The position numbers and the translations under genes are program-made. A stretch of 64,000 bases of DNA, from positions 38,936,001 to 39,000,000 of the forward strand of contig OX597839.1 in assembly GCA_951406725.2 (NCBI GenBank). Direction: 5' to 3'. The notes under the pieces were generated by a model. That model was given only the letters and a program-made list of their open reading frames with translations. It had not been told where the DNA came from and made no database searches. Below are positions 1 to 58,470 of the stretch, one piece after another; position 1 is the stretch's first letter; each line of letters starts with the position of its first letter. Source of the stretch: Octopus vulgaris. Lineage: Eukaryota.

Positions 1-150
1 TCATTTAATCAGTTAATTAATCTACAGTCTGATTAATTGTTCGGTCAAGCAATCAATTAATCAGTCATTTAAGTTCGTCAGTGTTGTTTCGTCGCCATTC
101 GTGATCTCATCAATGACATGCGCTCTCGCAACCTTAGATCAGTTTCAAAT
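1..150. repeat. Unclassified dispersed repeat, homologous to ~21360-21500
   Basis: Shared blocks TGATTAATTGTTCGGTCAA and TCAATGACATG in the same order at both loci. Confidence 0.6.
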
Positions 151-189
151 CTGTTTGTCCTTGAGTTTACTGCACGTTCGTACACAACA

Positions 190-256
190 CCAAATTTCAC
201 AACGTACACACGATCGCACACATACATAAATATACATGCGCACATCTATGTAAACA

Positions 257-294
<38 letters not shown>

Positions 295-649
295 CTCTCT
301 CTCACACACACACACACAGGAACACAGGTACATGTATAAACTCTCACTCACATACATGCACAATCATGCGCAAAAACACACAATGCTTGCAAATCAAACA
401 AATACGCGAAGACACAAATATACATACACAGAGACACACACACACAGACACACGGTGGCAGACAATGAAATATATATACACACACACAACTTACACAAAA
501 CGCATACACAAACACATACACATGCACAACCACGCACATATACACATACACACAAATTACGCACATACACACAGTTACAAAAACTACACACACAAATACA
601 TAAATATATACAAATAAAAATATACACATATACACAAAAAATTACATGC

Positions 650-731
<82 letters not shown>

Positions 732-1159
732 AGTATATACATACACGAATTACACGCATATCTACAGGCAGAAACATATACATGCAGATGCATACATACA
801 CACGGACAAAACACAGACATCCACACATATACACACACAGCTATTAAACAAAAATTACACACACGCCGACACAAAAATAAATATATACAAAAATATACAC
901 ACATGCGCAAAAAAATATACGCGACATAAATTCACAAATACACATGTTTATACACACACCAATAACACACACATATATATATACAGGGAGAGACGCATAT
1001 ATACAGATACTTACAAACAGGCAAACGCATACACACACACACACACACACACACAGATATACACATATATTCAATCACTCATACAAAACGATCTGATCGA
1101 TTCATCTAAATTAACAATGGCGTATGGTATACAAAGAAAAATAAACGCTGGCATACAAC

Positions 1160-1191
<32 letters not shown>

Positions 1192-1375
1192 ATACAGACA
1201 CACGTAAACACATATAACGGCATATACAAACACATACATATATAGAGACATGAACACACACAGCTGCACTCACACAAATACATTCAAAGAAAGAAATATA
1301 CACACACATACGCGAACGCAACGACACAAACACACTGAACACACAGACACAAACACACTGAACACACAGACACAT
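190..1375. repeat. Degenerate (CA)n/(TA)n compound microsatellite field
   Basis: Directly visible; explains the overlapping His/Thr and Val/Cys ORFs. Confidence 0.95.
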
Positions 1376-1659
1376 TTTAGTGATTTATCAATGGAAGATA
1401 TTGCTTCTAACAAGTAACGACTTATGTCTTAAAAGGATTTCTAATTTATGAGTTTATGTCTGGTTATTTACACGCACCCACCCACCTACCCAACACACAC
1501 ATGCGCGCGCCGCAAACACACACAGAGAAACATATATATGTATATATATATGTATATATATATGCACGCGTACACATTAATATATAGAAAAATATATATA
1601 CACGTACATAGTTCCATGCATCGACATCTAGTAATACATACAGACATACGTGCATGCAT

Positions 1660-2075
1660 GGAGTGGTTGTGTGCCAAGTAGCTTGCTTACCAACCACATG
1701 GTTCCGGGTTCAGTCCCAATGCGTGGCACCTTGGGCAAGTGTCTTCTACTATAGCCTCGGGTTGACCAAAGCCTTGTGAGAGGAAACTGAAAGAAGCCCG
1801 TCGTAGGTATAAATATATATAATTATATATATATATATATATATATTACATGTGTGTGTGTGTATATGTTTGTGTGTCTGTTTGTTCCCCCAACATCGTC
1901 TGACAACCGATGTTGGTGTGTTTACGTCTCCGTTACTTATCGGTTCGGCAAGAGAGACCGATAGAATAAACACTAGGCTTACAAAGAATAAGTCCTTGGG
2001 TCGACTTGCTCGACTAAAGGCGGTGGTCCAGCATGGCCGCAGTCAAATTAATGAAACAAATAAAAGAAAAGAATA
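1660..2075 (+). mobile_element. tRNA-derived SINE, family A
   Basis: Head GGAGTGG.TGTGTG...GGTTCAGTCCC (Pol III A/B-box-like), internal (TA)/(TG) tract, tail ...GAAACAAATAAAAGA; many copies in the window. Confidence 0.9.
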
Positions 2076-2366
2076 AAATAATATATGTATAAATACAGAG
2101 AGAGAGAGAGAGTGAGAGAGAGAGAGAGATACAGATATATAGAAATAGGTATAGATATATATTCACAAATGTATATACATCCATATACATATGCATATGC
2201 ACTTATCAGCGCACACACATACACACACACACACGTACAAACATATATACTCGTATACATAAATATAAACAAATGGATGTATGATCATAGTTGTTTCCAT
2301 ACAGTGACACGCACATCCACATATAACATTATATTCAAATACGTATATACTAATATACACACGTTC

Positions 2367-2418
<52 letters not shown>

Positions 2419-2419
<1 letters not shown>

Positions 2420-3530
2420 TGTGGTTATGTGGAAAGAATCTTACTTCCCAACCATATGGCTCCAGGTTCAGTCCATCTGTGCGGCACCATGGGTAAGTGT
2501 CCTCTACTTTAACCTCGGACCACACCGTTTGGCAACAGATGCTGGTCTGTTTATGTCCCCGTAACTTAGAAGCTCGGAAAAGAGATTGATAGAATGAGTA
2601 CCAGGTTTTAAAAAATCAGTACTGGGTATTGGGGTCGATGTGTTCGACTAAAAATTCTTGGATCTTTACCCTCTGAACGGCAGATCGAGAAATTAATTTT
2701 TTGTAACTAAACACTTTCAAACTTCGGACACAGGTAGAATGCGTCACATAAAACATCTTTTACTCTTAGCGTTTTTGAGAACAGTTTATGTTTACAAAGT
2801 TATTTCGTGTTAAAGTTCTCGTGTTTCAGTAATTTCAACCAATCAATGACGTGTATTCAGCTGAATAAAATTACTGCTGTTGTTTGTCAACAACAACTTC
2901 CGGCGGTGTATATTTCGTTTGTCACTGTTATTTATGACATATTTCATCTCATTTACGTTCGTATGAATAAAAGAGTGTATCTGAAGCATGTTTACTTCAT
3001 GGCACCACCATAATCGCTTGTGCTTCGTTTTTCCTTTTTTTTTTCTGTAACTCTAACCCTAAGACCCTAACCTTAACTCTAAAACCCTAACCCTAAAACT
3101 CTAGCCCTAACCCTAAAACCCTAACTCTAAAACCCTAACGCTAACACTAAAACCTTAAAGCTAAAACCAGTACAAACGCACGAACGATGTTATAAATAAC
3201 AGTGATAAACGAAATATACACCGCTGATAGTTGTTGTTGATAAATAACGGCAGTAATTATATTCAGTAATTATATACACGTCATTGATTGGTTGAAATTA
3301 CCAAAATACGACATCTTTAACACGAAATAACTACGTAAACATAAACTGTTCTCAAAAACGCTTAGAGTAAAATATATTTTATATGAAACATTCTACCAGT
3401 ATACGAAGTTTGAAAGTGTTTAGTTACAAAAAATTATTTTCTAAATCTGCCAGTCAAAAGGTAAAGATCCAAATTCTTAAAGGTGGTGCCCCAGGATGGC
3501 TGCTGTCTAATAACTGAAATAAGTGAAAGA
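2419..3530 (+). mobile_element. Diverged SINE family A copy split by a MITE insertion
   Basis: SINE sequence stops at ...CGACTAAAAATTCTT (2659) and resumes AAAGGTGGTGCCCCAGGATGGC at ~3479. Confidence 0.8.
2660..3470. mobile_element. Non-autonomous DNA transposon (foldback/MITE) with ~280-bp TIRs, 8-bp TSD and internal telomere-like repeats
   Basis: Ends GGATCTTTACC...GGTAAAGATCC; long imperfect inverted arms; TSD AAATTCTT at 2652-2659 and 3471-3478; degenerate TAACCC units ~3047-3168. Confidence 0.9.
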
Positions 3531-3879
3531 AATACACACACGTACACACACACATACGCACACACAGACACAGACACACACACATACAACAATATAGAAT
3601 ATGGAAACTTGTTCTATTTCCTCTTATATAATTTCATACTGCATATTTTTATGGTTGTCGTCTACAGGTATTTCCACTGCACAAAGTCTGGGCAGTTGCA
3701 CATGAAACCGGGCATGATTTTCTATGCAGCCTCTTCGGGGTCTGTCCATTTGGCTAGTTTCAAAGCAAACAGGATACAGGTAATTGCTTGTTAGTTAAGG
3801 TTCAGGGGGTGGTAGGGAGATGCTGTTTTGAAACTGAAATCTGAACTTAGAGCCTCTACGGTATCCACCCGGATTATAA

Positions 3880-4109
3880 GGCGGCGAGCTGGCAGAAACG
3901 TTAGCACGCCGGGCGAAATGCTTAGCGGTATTTCGTCTGCGTTACGTTGTGAGTTCAAATTCCGCCGAGGTCGACTTTGCCTTTCATCCTTTCGGGGTCG
4001 ATAAATTAAGTACCAGTTACGCACTGGAGTCGATGTAATCGACTTAATACCTATGTCTGTCCTTGTTTGTCCGCTCTGTGTTTAGCCCCTTGTGGGTAAT
4101 AAAGAAATA
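3880..4109 (+). mobile_element. SINE family B, monomer with 15-bp TSD
   Basis: Head GGCGGCGAGCTGGCAGAAACG, B-box-like GAGTTCAAATTCC, core GACTTTGCCTTTCATCCTTTCGGGGTCGATAAA; TSD GGTATCCACCCGGAT at 3860-3874 and 4110-4124. Confidence 0.92.
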
Positions 4110-4149
4110 GGTATCCACCCGGATAATTATATCCATCTAAAACTCACAA

Positions 4150-4187
4150 CTGCCCGACGAACGGGAACGTGAAACTCTGAGTAGCAG
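4150..4187 (+). ncRNA. Type I hammerhead ribozyme-like motif (U4C core variant)
   Basis: ctgc-CCGACGA-acg ggaa cgt-GAAA-ctc t gag-TA-gcag; all three stems pair. Confidence 0.6.
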
Positions 4188-4204
4188 ATTTTGTGATATT
4201 TTTG

Positions 4205-4345
4205 CGTAACTGGTACTTATTTCATCGAAGCCGAAAGGATGAAAGACAAAGTCGAACTCAGCGGAGCTTGAACACAGAACGTAGAGACGGACGAAATGCC
4301 GCTTGGCATTTTGCCTGGCGTGCTAACGATTCTGCCAGCTCATCA
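4205..4345 (-). mobile_element. SINE family B fragment
   Basis: Reverse complement of B head and core. Confidence 0.8.
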
Positions 4346-4387
4346 CAACAACAACGACAACAATAATAATAATAGTAATAATAATGA

Positions 4388-4937
4388 TTGATGCAGTACC
4401 AGGCAGTGGCTCTCATGGCTTCTGATCTTAACTGATTGGAAGTGTTACCATGAACATTGTTTTGTCTTGGTATAAAAGATGGGCTACAGCAAATATTCTG
4501 CTCAATACCACAGATTTGCTTGTCAGTTGTTTGACCTTAACCAGTTGAGCATGTCCCTTAGTGGCTGACGATATGTGCATCTCTGATCACGAGCAGAAGT
4601 AGTGGGGGAGCATCATAGCCATGTGTTGAGAGGGATTCTTTGGGGTTTGAATAATTCACCTCTGAAACATGGGTGGTTCTTTCAACATCCTTAAACAACC
4701 CTTATTCAGGGACCTTTTGAGCGGGATGGGCTACTCAACCTGAAGAAAATTCTAACTGGGCCCCACCTGCAAGGTCATGTGCTGTTTATCTTGATATGAG
4801 ATCACCATGTCGCGCACATATGGTTGTGATGCATGTGCCTGGTGTACCCTTATCAGACGGGTAGTCATGATGGGTATATTGGGCTTCGTATATTTTACCC
4901 CAGTGTCACTTTGATGGCATGAACTGCTCTCTCACTC

Positions 4938-4985: not shown

Positions 4986-5200
4986 CCTTTCTACAATAGG
5001 CACAAGGCCTGAAATTTATGGTATGGGGGTGGGGTAAGTCGATGATATCGACCTCAGTACATGACTGATAGCTACTTTATCGACCCCGAATGGATGAAAG
5101 GCAGCTTCGACCTCGGCGGAATTTGAACGCAGAACGTAAAGATGGACGAAACGCCTCTAAGAATTTCGCCCGGCGTACTAACGATGCTGCCAGCTCACCG
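4985..5200 (-). mobile_element. SINE family B with alternative tail (GGCCTTGTGCCTA..GTAGAAAGGA(TTA)n)
   Basis: B head and core on the minus strand; tail differs from the 3880 copy. Confidence 0.8.
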
Positions 5201-5204
5201 CATC

Positions 5205-7691: not shown

Positions 7692-7727
<36 letters not shown>

Positions 7728-8234
7728 AATATATATATACATATATACCATTATCTCACTGATTTCAGTTATTCGCCTAGAGCCATACTAGTATACGACC
7801 ATTCGCGTTTTTATAGCTGTTCACATGGACTTCTGCACTTGTCTCAGTCACGTATACTTATATCATATCAGCACCTATTTATCGAATGAGAAACTTATGA
7901 TACGGAACACTAGTGTAAACGGTTAAGCCTAAACCGAAGGAAAGCTTGGGCTTTTCCCAACTCCTTCAACAACATTCTGCTTATAAGACGATGGTAAATC
8001 AAGAATAGAATATCAGTAGAAGATAGTCGTTGTCTTCCACGAAATGGAATGTGTGGATGCGCTGCAAGTTGGACTCGTTAAACATACAGCCTTAATGGCG
8101 GCTATAAAATTTGTCCAACGTTAACAATAATAATTTAAGATATTAGCAATTATAAGGCGGCGAGCTAGCAGAAACGTTAGCATGCCGGGCGAAATGCTTA
8201 GCGGTATTTCGTCTGCTATTTTCTGTATGTTATA

Positions 8235-8747
8235 CTAGCAGTATCGCCCGGCGTTGCTCGGATTTGTAAGGGAAATAACTATATAAGCATTTTTAGAGAG
8301 TTATTTCCCTTATAGATGCCAATTCGGGCTTTCTTAGCCATTTCTGTTTTGGTGTCTTCAAGCCATGAAGTCGTTGTTCTAAAAGAACGCTGGTCTCCTT
8401 GACAACGCTTTACGACGTTGATTTCCTTACACTCCCTTCCCCACAGCTTCACGAGGGAGGGAAGAAGGGGGAGAAGCAAACAGGTGCAGGTGTGACCATG
8501 GACGCCAACTCCGCCGCCATCGACACACGAAAAATTATGCATTAAAATGGAATAAAAAATGATGTTAAATTATTTTTAAAATCGTAGACTCAGCGTAGAC
8601 GCGCGCTAATACTCAGACGGGCTCGATATGAATCACGACTATAAGATACCCGAATTTGGTTAAACTGCACCGCAAAATGTGGGAGTAGTTAGGAATCTAA
8701 ATCGAAGGGGACAGACACTCACACAACTACAGTTTTATATATATAGA
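8235..8747 (-). mobile_element. Non-autonomous Helitron
   Basis: On the minus strand starts TC(TATATATA), ends with GC-rich CCGAGCAACGCCGGG and CTAG, sits between A and T; shorter copy at 36875-37171. Confidence 0.8.
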
Positions 8748-8754
8748 TATATAG

Positions 8755-8925
8755 TTAATCCAAACATGAAAGCACAAAAAAACACAACAACGCGAGGACG
8801 TGGAATAAATATAGTATTATTGGACGTTTCGAGCGGAGCTCTTCGTTGGAAACATAGGAGAAGGTAAGATCCAGAGAAGGGAAGACAGAGGGGAAAAAAT
8901 CGCCAACGGTACACACGAGGTCACA
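8755..8925 (-). mobile_element. Penelope-like terminal-repeat fragment (family P1) with degenerate hammerhead
   Basis: Homologous to 43597-43790 and 28995-29280; minus strand CCAACGA-a-gagc tcc gctc-GAAA-cg. Confidence 0.65.
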
Positions 8926-9297
8926 TATATATAACTCTTGCCCACTGTACCTCGCAGTGGGACTGAACTCACGAAACCACATGGTTGCAAAGCGACCTTC
9001 TTAACCACACAGCCTACGCATATACTAAGTGTCATTTGGTATCAAGCTTTACAGATGGCTATCTGTAGAGATTCATACCAAATCCTCCTTGGAGATTACG
9101 TGTTTATTTAATGATATGCATCTGTGTCCGTCTTTGGGGCTTATTGTTGTTGCTGATACTCTCAATTTTACTTACGTTGTTGTTGTTTTTGTTGTTGTTG
9201 CTATTCTTGTTTCAGCCGTTTTTGTTCTTCGCATTGTTTGTGTTATTGTTGTTGTTGTTCGTGTTGTTATTAGAGATGCATGGCTCTACAACTAGAA

Positions 9298-12021: not shown

Positions 12022-12280
12022 TCCTTTCTACTGGAAGCAGATCGATCCAGTACGTAACTGGTACTAATTTAATCGACCCCGAGAGGATGGAAGGCAATGT
12101 CGACCTCGGTGGAATTTGAACTCAGAACGTAAAGACAGACGAAATACCTATTTCTTTACTACCCACAAGGGGCTAAACACAGAGAGGACAGACAAACAGA
12201 TCAAGTCGATTACATCGACCCCAGTGCGTAACTGGTACTTATTTAATCGACCTCGAAAGGATAAAAGGCAAAGTCGACAT
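12022..12280 (-). mobile_element. SINE family B partial tandem (about 1.5 units)
   Basis: Unit junction GACGAAATACCTATTTCTTTAC at ~12138-12160. Confidence 0.8.
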
Positions 12281-31217: not shown

Positions 31218-31430
31218 TCCGTTCTACTGTAGGCACAAGGTCTGAAATTCGGGGGAAGGGATTAAGTCGATTAAATCGACCCCAGTGCGTAAATGGTACT
31301 TCTTTAATCGACCCCGAAAGGATGAAAGGCAAAGTCGACCTCGGCGTAATTTGAGCTCAGAATGTGGTGACAGACGAAATACCGCTAAGTGTTTCGCCAG
31401 GCGTGCTAACGATTCTGCCAGCTCGCCGTC
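31218..31430 (-). mobile_element. SINE family B, alternative tail
   Basis: TTCTACTGTAGGCACAAGG...CTGCCAGCTCGCCG. Confidence 0.88.
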
Positions 31431-31436
31431 TTAATG

Positions 31437-32014
31437 ATACAAAATAGTAAAGCCAGTCGCCACATCAAAGTGGCTGTTGAATGGTACTACTAGTTTAACC
31501 CCAGGCAGATTCTCCGCCAGCTGGTTATCGGTGGGACACTGCACCCTTTATATACAATATATTGTTAGCAGGGGGGAGCGAACCCCTACCGTCCTGTAGC
31601 AGGTATCAAGGATCGCGAGACTGACTTAGTTTCGAGTTCCCCCTGCTAAAAATATATTTATATAAAGGGTGCAGAGTGTCGCACCGATCACCACCTGGCT
31701 GAGAATCTGCCCGGGGTTAAACCAGTAGTAACATTCAACAACCACTTTGATGTGGCGATTGGCTTTACAGGCGGCGAGCTGGCAGAAACGTTAGCGCGAC
31801 GGGCGAAATGCTTAGCGGTATTTCGTCTGCCGTTACGTTGTGAGTTCAAATTCCGCCGAGGTCGACTTTGCCTTTCATTCTTTCGGGGTCGATAAATTAA
31901 GTACCAGTTACGCACTGGGGTCGATGGAATCGACTTAATCGCTTTGTCTGTCCTTGTTTGTCCCCTCTGTGTTTAGCCCCTTGTGGGTAGTAAAGAAATA
32001 TTTACTGTTTAGTA
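31437..32014. mobile_element. Palindromic MITE (~140-bp TIRs); right tip interrupted by a SINE B
   Basis: GTAAAGCCAGTCGCCACATCAAAGTGG...CCACTTTGATGTGGCGATTGGCTTTAC; remaining tip TTTACTGTTTAGTAT lies after the SINE. Confidence 0.85.
31770..32000 (+). mobile_element. SINE family B monomer
   Basis: Full head, core and tail; TTTAC on both sides. Confidence 0.92.
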
Positions 32015-32179: not shown

Positions 32180-32621
32180 GACCCTGATACCTGCCCGAGG
32201 CTATAGTAAAATACACTTGCCCAAGGAACAATGCAGTGGGACTGAATCCGGAACCATGTGGTTGAGAAGCAAGCTTCTTTTATTCATTCAATTGGCCACA
32301 AGGGCCTCACAAAAAAAGGAAGCTGCGGGTTGGACACGCACATAATGATATGAATGACAAATGAAATGATGAAAAATGAGGGCAACAAGCAACGGCCGCC
32401 GATTGCTGTTTACCCGAAAACATTGTTCTTAGAAGCTTCTTGCCACACGGCCATCGGGTGGTTATGAGAGTCCACCCGAGTAAAATAAGAATCAAAGGTG
32501 TCAATAGGTAAAAAAAAAAAATTGTTGAGAAATCCTGGACTAAACCCTTGAAGACGGTACCCCAGCATGGCCGTAGTCCAGTCACTGAAACTAATAAAAG
32601 AATAAGCGGTATCTTCTCCGT

Positions 32622-33398
32622 AAGCTGGCAGAATCGTTAGCACGCCGGGCGAAACGCTTTGCGGTATTTCGTCTGCCGTTACGTTCTGAGTTTAAATTCC
32701 GCCGAGGTCGACTTTGCCTTTCATCCTTTCGGGGTCGATTAAATAAGTACCAGTTACGCACTGGGGTCGATATAATCGACTCAATCCGTTTGTCTGTCCT
32801 TGTTTGTCCTCTCTGTGTTTAGCCCCTTGTGGGTAGTAAAGAAATAGGTATTTCGTCTGCCGTTACGTTCTGAGTTCAAATTCCGCCGAGGTCGACTTTG
32901 CCTTTCATCCTTTCGAGGTCGATTAAATAAGTACCAGTTACGCACTGCGGTCGATATAATCGACTCAATCCGTTTGTCTGTCCTTGTTTGTCCTCTCTGT
33001 GTTTAGCCCCTTGTGGGTAGTAAAGAAATAGGCATTTCATCTGCCGCTATGTTCTGAGTTCAAAATTCGCCGAGGTCGACTTTGCCTTTCATCCTTTCGG
33101 GGTCGATTAAATAAGTACCAGTTACGCACTGGGGTCGATGGAATCGACTCAAACCGTTTGTCTGTCCTTGTTTGTCCTCTCTGTGTTTAGCCCCTTGTGG
33201 GTAGTAAAGAAATAGGTATTTCGTCTGCCGTTACGTTCTGAGTTCAAATTCCGCCGAGGTCGACTTTGCCTTTCATCCTTTCGGGGTCGATAAATAAGTA
33301 CCAGTTATGCACTGGGGTCGATATAATCGACTCAATCCCTTTGTCTGTCCTTGTTTGTCCTCTCTGTGTTTAGCCCCTTGTGGGTAGTAAAGAAATAT
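32622..33398 (+). mobile_element. SINE family B concatemer: one partial head plus four 184-bp units inside one 13-bp TSD
   Basis: Units start 32663, 32847, 33031, 33215; TSD GTATCTTCTCCGT at 32609-32621 and 33399-33411. Confidence 0.92.
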
Positions 33399-33699
33399 GT
33401 ATCTTCTCCGTTTTTTTTAAATCTAAATTCTAGCGACTGTGGTTTTGTTTTATTTGTAGAAACCCTCTCCAGCCATATTTTTCAAGGAAGAATTCAAATA
33501 TTTAAAAAGGAGAACGTTAACATGTTTATAGGCATGTTATTAACAATAGAAACATCGAAAACAACAAAGAAGAAGAACAGCAAATGCAACAACAATTATA
33601 ACAACATCAATAGTTATACAAAGAGAAAAACAACCAGAAAAAACAACAAAGAGAGTAAAAAGCAACAACAACATCAGTAACAAAAAGGAAGAACAAATT

Positions 33700-45969: not shown

Positions 45970-46375
45970 GTTTCTAATTCTGGCACAAGGCCAGCAGATT
46001 CGGGGAAGTGGGTAAGTCTATTACAGCGAGCCCAATGATCAGCTGGTTTATTTTATCGACCCCGAAAGGATGAAAGGTGAAGTCAACCTCGGTGGAATTT
46101 GAACTCAGAAAGTAAAGACGGAGGAAAGACTGCTAAGCATGTTACCCAGCGTGCTAACGATTCTACCAGCTCTCCGCCTAAAATTAACATAAAATATTGG
46201 TTTCAAAATTCTGGCTCAAGATCAGCAATTTCAGGGGAAGGGTTAAGTCGATTACATCAACCCCAGTGATTCGCGTAAAGATGAGAGACAAAATCGATCC
46301 CGGCGAAAACCAACTCAGAACGTAAGACGGACGAAATGCCGTTAACCATTTGCTCTTAGCACGCTAACTCACTGC
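45970..46375 (-). mobile_element. Two adjacent old SINE family B copies (TGGTTTC..GGCACAAGGCC tail variant)
   Basis: B core on the minus strand twice. Confidence 0.7.
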
Positions 46376-52607: not shown

Positions 52608-53398
52608 GGCGGCGAGCTGGCAGAAACGTTAGCACGCCGGGCGAAATGCTTAGCGGTATTTCGTCTGCGTTACGTTGTAAGTTCGAATTCCGCTGAGGTC
52701 GACTTTGCCTTTCATCCTTTCGGGGTCGATAAATATCAGTACCAGTTACGCACTGGCGTCGATGTAATCGACTTCATCCGTTTGTCTGTCCTTGTTTGTC
52801 CCCTCTATGTTTAGCCCCTTGTGGGTAGTAAAGAAATAGGTATTTCGTCTGCCGTTACGTTCTGAGTTCAAATTCCGCCGTGGTCGACTTTGCCTTTCAC
52901 CCTTTCGGGGTCGATAAATTAAGTACCAGTTACGCACTGGGGTCGATGTAATCGACTTAATACCTATGTCTGTCCTTGTTTGTCCCCTCTGTTTTTAGCC
53001 GCTTGTGGGCAATAAAGTAACAGGTATTTCGCCTGTCGTTACGTTGTGAGTTCAAATTCCGCCGAGGTTGACTTTTCCTTTCATCCTTCCGGGGTCGATA
53101 AATTAAGTACCAGTTACGCACTTAATGTAATCGACTTAATACCTATGTCTTTCCTTGTTTGTCCCCTCTATGTTTAGCCCCTTGTGGGTAATAAAGAAAT
53201 AGGTGTTTCGTCTGCCGCTATTTCTGAGTTCAAATTCCGCCGTGGTCGACTTTGCCTTTCATCCTTTCGGGGTCGATAAATTAAGTACCAGTTACGCACT
53301 GGGGTCGATATAATCGACTTAATCTGTTTGTCTGTCCTTGTTTGTCCCCTCTGTGTTTAGCCCCTTGTGGGTAATAAAGAAATAGGTATTTCGTCTGC
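52608..53398 (+). mobile_element. SINE family B concatemer: head plus four ~184-bp units plus the start of a fifth
   Basis: Units start 52655, 52839, 53023, 53202, 53385. Confidence 0.92.
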
Positions 53399-53923
53399 AC
53401 CATATATTTGGTCTTCACTTCAGCTTTATTACTATTATTATTGCTTTAGTTTCTTTATCAAAGGCGGTGCTTCTGTATGATTACAATCAAATGACTGAAA
53501 GAAGTGAAGTTAAAAGAAGACTTAAGATCAGGGATTCTTGGTAACGAAGTGCACTGTATAGACAAGTAAAAATCAGTTTGGCGAAAGTGGGAATGTCTAA
53601 AGCTTTGTACAATAAGCCAATGTTGTTCGTATTTGTTACTTCTACCAGGTAAATCGTTAGTTATACTATTTGCACCTATAATTTAGTTTTAGTCGAAATA
53701 TGTTCCACGCTGATGAAGGATCCACACAGAACTGTCAGTCTTACTCTGTTCCATACGGTATGCTAATTTACACGCCAGTGAAATAAACAGTAAGACCCGA
53801 GGCTACTAGTAACTGACAACGACGGCGATTTATTAATGAGAATAAACAATTTAAATATGCTTGTTTGGTGGAAGATAAAACGTCAAAATATCTTACTCGC
53901 TGATGAAAGGTCCAAACAGAACC

Positions 53924-54154
53924 TATTTCTTTATTACCCACAAGGGGCTAAACATAGAGGGGACAAACAAGGACAGACATAGGTATTAAGTCGATTACAT
54001 CGACCCCAGTGTGTAACTGGTACTTAATTTATCGACCCCGAATGGATGAAAGGCAAAGTCGACCTCGGCGGAATTTGAACTCAGAACGTAACGGCAGACG
54101 AAATACGGCTACGCATTTCGCCCGGCGTGCTAACGTGTCTGCCAGCTCGCCGCC
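53924..54154 (-). mobile_element. SINE family B monomer with 13-bp TSD and 5' (TCTA)n addition
   Basis: TCCAAACA(G/T)AACC at 53911-53923 and 54175-54187. Confidence 0.9.
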
Positions 54155-58266: not shown

Positions 58267-58470
58267 AGGCGACAAGCTGGCAGAAACGTTAGCACACCTG
58301 GTGAAATGCTTAGCGACATTTCATCCGTCCTTACGTTCTAATTCCGCCGAGGTCGACTTTGCCTTTCATCATTTCGGGGTCGATAAAATAAGTACCAATT
58401 ACAAACTGAGGTCGATGTAATATCGTCTAGTTCCCTCCCATAAAATTTCCGGCCTTGTACCTTTTGTAGT
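58267..58470 (+). mobile_element. SINE family B, alternative tail
   Basis: GGCGACAAGCTGGCAG...GGCCTTGTACCTTTTGTAG. Confidence 0.8.

Follow-up and report, generated by a model that had tools for sequence, protein, structure and literature searches.

Tandem arrays of short interspersed elements (SINEs) enclosed by a single target-site duplication (TSD) have precedents in animals, which we cite here from the passages that bear on the comparison. In the blood clam Scapharca broughtonii, multimers of the form TSD1-(SINE)n-TSD1 make up about 3% of SINEs; a first copy with a complete tRNA head is followed by head-truncated repeats, one TSD surrounds them all, the middle units lose the tail too, and the authors invoke unequal recombination (PMC11481361). 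The squamate repeats named sSats likewise consist of tandem partial tRNA-SINE units with one longer terminal unit, become more homogeneous as the array lengthens, have varied unit boundaries and are ascribed to duplication and concerted evolution (PMC10702118). The crocodilian SINEU-3, associated with Tx1-Mar long interspersed elements (LINEs), has its target inside another repeat, a Mariner, and inserts sequentially in tandem, so that full copies sandwich a TSD (PMC4494074). Here, we analyze a stretch of 64,000 nucleotides from Octopus vulgaris (OX597839.1, positions 38,936,001 to 39,000,000, forward strand; hereafter "the window"), in which a SINE that we call B forms an array of one head and four head-less units at 32608-33411. 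The architecture is thus known from a bivalve and from squamates, and the new aspect is that the junction between units lies at the SINE's own insertion site.

The octopus arrays differ from all three precedents, as far as the cited passages describe them. Unlike in the clam, they involve about half of the B elements, and the units keep their full tail. Unlike in squamate sSats, one base sets nearly all junctions, and the arrays are short, dispersed and mix families in age order. Unlike in SINEU-3, the target is the head of the SINE itself, and the second head is usually lost. Our literature search turned up no description of a SINE that targets its own head, while supplements and Repbase-type records may describe the family; the consulted portions of PMC13282606, PMC4824008 and PMC8967140 do not mention these arrays.

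We numbered the element from 1 to 231 after the copy at 52608, so that the repeated units correspond to positions 48-231, and searched the genome (2.8 Gb in 227 contigs). The B family is defined by a tail ending in ...AAAGAAATA, and its sister SINEs, A (A1 and A2), have the head and centre in common with it and differ in the tail; the A families are older than B. Being short (231 bp), non-coding, high-copy and dispersed, the element resembles tRNA-derived SINEs in these traits. ARAGORN and Rfam scans of the head gave no tRNA match, and the names A-box-like and B-box-like reflect motifs matched by eye to the RNA polymerase III (Pol III) promoter consensus. The focal array comprises the following parts:

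32608..32621, plus strand: left TSD copy (14 bp if G32608 is counted), at a site C|GGTATC, the main target class of the B family
32623..32662, plus strand: single tRNA-like head, family positions 8-47, containing the A-box-like part and 5'-truncated by 7 nt
32663..32846, plus strand: unit 1, positions 48-231, starting at the self-target C|GGTATTTCG
about 32688-32700, plus strand: B-box-like motif of unit 1, with a private C>T change
32847..33030, plus strand: unit 2, with 3 differences from unit 1
33031..33214, plus strand: unit 3, an outlier that still has the shared rare 167C
33215..33397, plus strand: unit 4, 183 bp, ending in the B tail ...GTAGTAAAGAAATA
33398..33411, plus strand: right TSD copy, in which T replaces G at 33398
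33411..33418, plus strand: predicted Pol III terminator, the first T-run after the head, outside the units

The left TSD copy GTATCTTCTCCGT (32609-32621) and the right one (33399-33411) are identical at 13 of 13 positions. Since C|G precedes the left copy at 32607-32608, the duplication probably spans 14 bp starting with GGTAT, the initial G having changed to T in the right copy. The initial annotation, made from the letters of the window, had described one head and four exact-phase 184-bp units within a 13-bp TSD; the head, units and TSD stand, with unit lengths of 184, 184, 184 and 183 bp and the probable extra TSD base. It had also given the unit start after the joint as GGTATTTCG, where the unit 2/3 junction reads AAAGAAATA/GGCATTTCA. 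TRF reports a period of 184 with 4.0 copies at 95%. Units 1, 2 and 4 differ mutually by just 3-4 bases, and unit 3 differs from the others by 10-11, of which 6-7 lie within its first 43 bases.

The junction is constant throughout the genome, as the initial annotation had anticipated. An exact pattern running from the tail into position 48 of a unit occurs 19,435 times, compared with 0 for the reversed-pattern control; for scale, there are 79,264 exact GGGTAR tails and 7,308 exact heads. In 303 junctions, a set enriched in that many loci were picked by the junction pattern, the tail meets position 48 in 277, position 15 in 7 and position 77 in 8 (one locus). In 464 kb sampled irrespective of the element, 19 of 40 B-tailed elements have at least two pieces and 40 of 70 tail ends lie at position 48. 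Most arrays have 2-4 units, and a few homogeneous ones have 9-16; with their tandem partial SINE units and longer terminal unit, they share this layout with sSats. Arrays of other periods are probably local expansions of one odd junction. Examples are a ten-piece array of 154-bp units joined at about position 77-80 (L161, minus strand, about 7726-9260) and a 156-bp unit joined via TATAT (G000:C1:4442667-4442871).

What the initial annotation missed is the main driver: the junction is the B family's own insertion site in its head. TSDs that start right after AAAGAAATA were found on 78 of 111 elements with a head and a B tail, compared with 4.7 in the shuffled control. The first base past the tail is G in 54 of the 111, and the commonest 5-mer is GGTAT (25 of 111, a few of them self-junction remnants), which bears out the proposed GGTAT bias of TSD starts. 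Over 77 non-simple TSDs, the upstream copy begins mostly G/T/A, G/A, T, A, T, and the base before the site is frequently C or T and rarely G (C in 27, G in 6). Both junction classes match sequences in the head itself, C|GGTAT at 47|48 and C|AGAA at 14|15, and are therefore the family's own targets.

Insertion into existing copies is directly visible in nested loci, in which a host head and at most 24 bases are followed by a new head. This pattern has 101 exact matches genome-wide, and we inspected the first 30, which represent 25 distinct loci. After the new tail, the host resumes at position 48 in 22 of the 25. At least one non-consensus host base is duplicated on both sides in 17 (where just one base is shared, this may in a few cases be a coincidence at the end of the TSD), at least two are in 9, and up to seven are in L407. 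Because host-specific bases are duplicated as the TSD, the nested loci record target-primed insertion of the ordinary kind into copies that were already present. Self-insertions in antisense, which are unable to use homology, retain both the head and the TSD (L084, L116 and L227).

The choice of target depends on the tail subfamily. Among the first 100 matches listed for GGGTAR tails, classified by eye, 63 lie at position 48, 1 at position 15, 1 is an antisense self-hit and 35 are external; the preference for one position makes this subfamily comparable to SINEs of the SINEU type, with a fixed site in a repeat. For GGGCAR tails, the corresponding counts in the first 100 matches listed, again by eye, are 15 at position 48, 13 at position 15 and 72 external. 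External starts follow the same division: 21 GG and 2 AGA/AGG after GGGTAR tails versus 12 GG, 15 AGA/AGG and many TATAT after GGGCAR tails. Both contrasts are significant (Fisher 2e-7 for positions 48 and 15, 63:1 vs 15:13; 7e-4 for external GG and AGA/AGG, 21:2 vs 12:15). Furthermore, some of the 77 TSDs have mismatches between their two copies within the first five bases; there, the downstream copy agrees better with the class motif in 19 and less well in 2, with 5 ties, a comparison in which some upstream anchors may be misplaced. Given that self-junctions and external TSD starts can both be predicted from the tail subfamily, and that TSD copies on the downstream side resemble the RNA, the RNA likely runs past the tail and the run-on likely helps choose the insertion site. 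Different partner enzymes for each tail subfamily are a possible alternative for the target differences. The initial suggestion of microhomology priming from multimeric or circular RNA is in this respect supported by the constant junction, the GGTAT-biased TSDs, the signs of run-on priming and the predicted multimeric Pol III transcript; its circular part is not supported, as discussed below.

Parts of such a mechanism have precedents in other retroposons, again as far as the cited passages go. In Drosophila R1 and R2, transcripts that include target bases 3' of the element may base-pair through them with the nicked strand, and precise 5' junctions come from the annealing of upstream target bases; when that annealing fails, a form with a TSD plus duplicated upstream sequence results (PMC2718515). 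They provide a model for both 3' flank pairing and 5' annealing in head replacement; unlike these autonomous elements specific to ribosomal DNA, the octopus SINE is non-coding, targets itself and has a subfamily-dependent preference. RTE, CR1 and L2 retroposons show a 3' microhomology signature, in which a terminal microsatellite acts as the guide, with an overlap of 1-2 bases in animals (PMC6007223, PMC13295347). The TSD start likewise follows the RNA 3' end in the octopus, unlike that signature with about 5 non-repetitive run-on bases equal to an internal site of the element.

The account that we regard as probable is that the SINE self-inserts at position 48 of existing copies, that repeats of this event likely build arrays of one head and many units, and that local unequal exchange then likely alters them, probably so at the focal locus. 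In this scheme, new copies end at AAAGAAATA and the head has two targets, the preferred one at 47|48 and another at 14|15; full-length copies then enter older hosts at position 48, where host bases are duplicated to form a normal TSD, as seen in the nested loci. The template RNA would extend past the tail into the bases that follow the source copy, and this run-on would pair with the nicked target. Self-inserted lineages would accordingly prefer the same site again, making the target heritable with positive feedback, a part of the scheme that is well supported, if indirectly. The 3' end of the complementary DNA, homologous to the host head, may then anneal to and replace most of that head, which would leave one head, add 184 bp, keep the host's old TSD and rebuild the target beside the head. 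Unit number would then shift by unequal exchange or conversion, for which there is one direct example. The reverse transcriptase (RT) and endonuclease would have to be supplied by a LINE, for which no candidate was identified. We tentatively extend this to an epigenetic form of inheritance, in which the first bases of the last landing site travel with the RNA as a 3' guide; descendants would home on SINE heads, replace the resident promoter head and rebuild the target, a loop that might turn dispersed SINEs into tens of thousands of satellite seeds.

The change from a dispersed retroposon to a tandem repeat is usually ascribed to unequal recombination. Here, junctions in about half of the B family, which has roughly 100,000 exact tail copies, record retroposition into self, as is evident from intermediates, the order of unit ages and targets that differ between subfamilies; this offers a testable route from SINE to satellite and what would be a natural case of RNA-guided target inheritance. 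One TSD also does not equal one insertion event, and annotators will split or misdate such composite elements.

The order of units within single-head arrays agrees with stepwise growth. In 30 of 94 arrays, the last unit belongs to the older sister family A, and genome-wide, A1 units follow a B tail 1,235 times and a head 731 times (the two patterns are unequally strict, and 8 of 50 units counted as following a head instead follow a position-15 junction). In single-head arrays terminated by A1, the last unit is more diverged than the preceding one in 54 cases and less diverged in 11 (65 of 70 loci parsed; 0.078 vs 0.044, p=1e-7). Within 66 all-B arrays, the ATACCTATG subfamily occurs only in the first unit in 13 and only in the last in 0. 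A few master chimeras as the source of the arrays are not supported by the clustering of last units, a test of limited power: no master clusters appear (Mantel r 0.04, p 0.34), and 57 pairs share at least two non-CpG variants compared with 52.5 under the null. The heads of B+A arrays are B-like at positions 20-39 (0.069, vs 0.074 for B and 0.147 for A) and intermediate at positions 9-25 (0.057 vs 0.033 and 0.092; p 0.024 and 0.052), that is, donor-like at 20-47 and partly host-like at 9-25. The base 19T is commoner in arrays (13/37 and 12/36) than in monomers of the same tail type (3/28; p 0.04). The head and the last unit showed no correlation, with too few bases available. A long conversion tract in the last unit was rejected, as last A1 units are cleanly A1 from position 61.

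Several results weigh against stepwise self-insertion. The nested intermediates are rare, 101 compared with 7,308 exact heads and 19,435 junctions; at about 2% of the frequency of arrays, they imply that head replacement must be about 98% efficient. The mostly donor-like head is also predicted by models in which whole RNAs are retroposed, and as retroposition of compound RNAs does occur (L405), some of the arrays may have arisen from whole multimers. Host-terminated arrays do not have significantly older TSDs (mismatch 0.095, vs 0.082 in B monomers and 0.069 in A1 monomers), and the rate of TSD mismatch was therefore rejected as a measure of age. Pairs of last units sharing at least three variants are slightly in excess (9 vs 3.7, p 0.025); the same excess is present among A1 monomers. 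A rare variant is shared in 10 of 40 dimers, compared with 2.4% of random pairs. No partner LINE, and none with the B tail, was found at the site among the 200 matches listed or among 510 tails, nor was a Tx1 LINE with the same target seen, in searches that were weak. Finally, no step at the focal locus can be dated with certainty.

The initial annotation had likened the arrays to retrozymes, which in animals are non-LTR elements defined, in the cited passages, by a type I hammerhead and circular RNA and which also occur in tandem, at times inside a TSD, as units a few hundred bases long (PMC7229834). Unlike them, the octopus element has a Pol III-type head and no detected hammerhead. The Rfam scan found no ribozyme (one chance match, E 4.9) and the CTGANGA hammerhead core is absent on both strands, which agrees with the earlier remark that the unit has no visible ribozyme and argues against a hammerhead in each unit, a novel ribozyme aside; the monomer fold is unremarkable (z = -1.62). 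A circular 184-nt RNA copied by rolling reverse transcription would account for the exact phase and for units 1, 2 and 4 lying only 3-4 bases apart. However, it leaves the single head and the sister-family last units unexplained, and a rolling copy of one template does not explain the outlying unit 3. The arrays are heterogeneous and ordered, with dimer distances nearly equal within (0.077) and between (0.091) loci, which together with the A-terminated arrays is at odds with homogeneity from a single template. We consider a circular source most improbable, and this part of the earlier interpretation is not supported. Template jumping within one insertion, in which RT copies one SINE RNA as far as position 48 (or 15) and then, through bases common to both, moves on to the 3' end of another RNA, would account for the single TSD, the donor head, the mixed units and the sister-family last units, and a predicted hairpin has position 47/48 in its loop. 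It is nonetheless strained and improbable: it predicts equal ages, against the 54 to 11 excess of older last units, and it yields neither TSDs of host-private bases nor subfamily polarity.

A multimeric source RNA is a stronger competitor, although still unlikely in our view. Here, Pol III would read through from an inner head, the whole chain would be retroposed into a fresh TSD, and self-insertion would only seed the sources. TTTT is absent from the focal array before 33411, so that Pol III transcription would yield a multimer there; among sampled units, 155 of 591 contain a TTTT. The run-on is real, the inner head is donor-like, B+A array TSDs are not detectably older, and individual loci contain a single TSD that encloses a partial head and a full element (L405) or a dimer inside the host TSD (L407). 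Self-hits also exceed the 6-mer prediction: only 18 of the 85 CGGTAT sites in the 464 kb lie in heads, yet 40 of the 70 tail ends are at position 48, compared with 11 at external GG. On the other hand, nested sources amount to about 2% of arrays, yet nearly half of the B elements in the unbiased sample (19 of 40) are multi-piece; the last units come from many unrelated hosts, and the outer head is partly host-like. A purely DNA-level origin, by tandem duplication or satellite formation between head position 48 and the GGTAT that opens the TSD and without retroposition at the junction, has as little probability as template jumping. It is consistent with the loci L171 and L177, with the homogeneity of long arrays (0.010-0.012 in three) and with the presence of 167C, rare elsewhere, in all four focal units. 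However, it is unable to join two families or subfamilies inside one TSD, 30 of 40 dimers have no shared rare variant, and the reiterated tail ends at junctions (10 of 30 loci) are a sign of RT initiation. The nested intermediates refute it as the sole origin, and it stands as a growth process.

As to those tail ends, GAAATA occurs twice at position-48 junctions in the 10 of 30 loci as scored by script and, by eye, in about 43 of 100 listed among 2,829 matches to a filtered pattern (including L470-L487), which looks like slippage at RT initiation.

A later change in unit number is seen directly at the paralogous loci L171 and L177, which have the same flanks and TSD and contain 3 and 2 chimeric units, respectively. 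Consistently, the within-array distance drops from 0.077 in dimers to 0.034 in arrays of at least five units. The focal 167C variant has 132 exact 42-mer copies genome-wide, and among 30 loci fetched, it is confined to one unit in 9 of 11 other multi-unit loci. Because all four focal units share it, the most likely course is a first self-insertion followed by local duplication or conversion that raised their number, and the initial proposal of expansion inside the TSD is probably right for this locus, given also the near-identity of units 1, 2 and 4. The focal tail-flank join is present in sequencing runs labelled as other organisms, indicating that the insertion is old rather than recent; no empty site was seen among the other samples, whose contigs are too short for this to carry weight. 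Two raw runs gave only 14 and 151 matching reads, too few to be informative. In the second of them, most of the few reads over 32780-32860 of the window differ at the junction (A32839C, G32848C) and continue into foreign bases on its flank, which may reflect a homogenised SINE-derived repeat in that sample.

The window contains further copies of B and A:

3860..4124, plus strand: B monomer, flanked by a 15-bp TSD that starts GGTAT
12041..12278, minus strand: truncated B unit joined at position 48 to a unit running on into an A-type tail
31770..32000, plus strand: another B monomer, 600 bp upstream of the focal array (TSD finder: none)
52608..53398, plus strand: second array, a head and four units of four different haplotypes, plus 14 nt of a fifth unit start
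53923..54154, minus strand: monomer, followed by GGTTC..., with a TSD probable by eye
31257-31428, 4203-4341, 5035-5201 and 46013-46178, minus strand: A-type sister SINE monomers
58268-58421, plus strand: A-type sister SINE monomer

The TSD reported for the copy at 3860 (GGTATCCACCCGGAT) is genuine. For the copy at 53923, the TSD finder returned none, and a 12/13 match found by eye, starting GGTT, lies upstream of a TATC run. The same junction does recur at 52608 and at 12148 on the minus strand, as had been stated; however, the 52608 array ends in the 14 nt of a fifth unit and the TSD finder detected no TSD there, and the 12148 junction leads into the sister A-type tail.

Among the loci examined elsewhere, older A-type SINEs are stacked head to tail and full-length at ATTAT/AATAT sites just upstream of other heads (L011, L018, L089, L119, L120, L183 and L186), and A1 targets are mostly C|AATAT. 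At L361 (+780) and L012 (+2822), an AGAA/GAAA overlap joins A1 tails without a seam to the head of another copy, at about position 17 and about position 36; the A1 sister family may self-insert too. Heads alone occur in tandem, with 55-bp and 65-bp periods, ahead of nested insertions (L426-L430 and L410-L411), and inverted, palindromic pairs of SINE copies are joined near position 48-65 (L081, L367 and L004). Two loci of the random sample contain open frames of 1056 and 1503 codons unrelated to the arrays (L157, minus strand 1205-4372, and L160, minus strand 2-4510, respectively).
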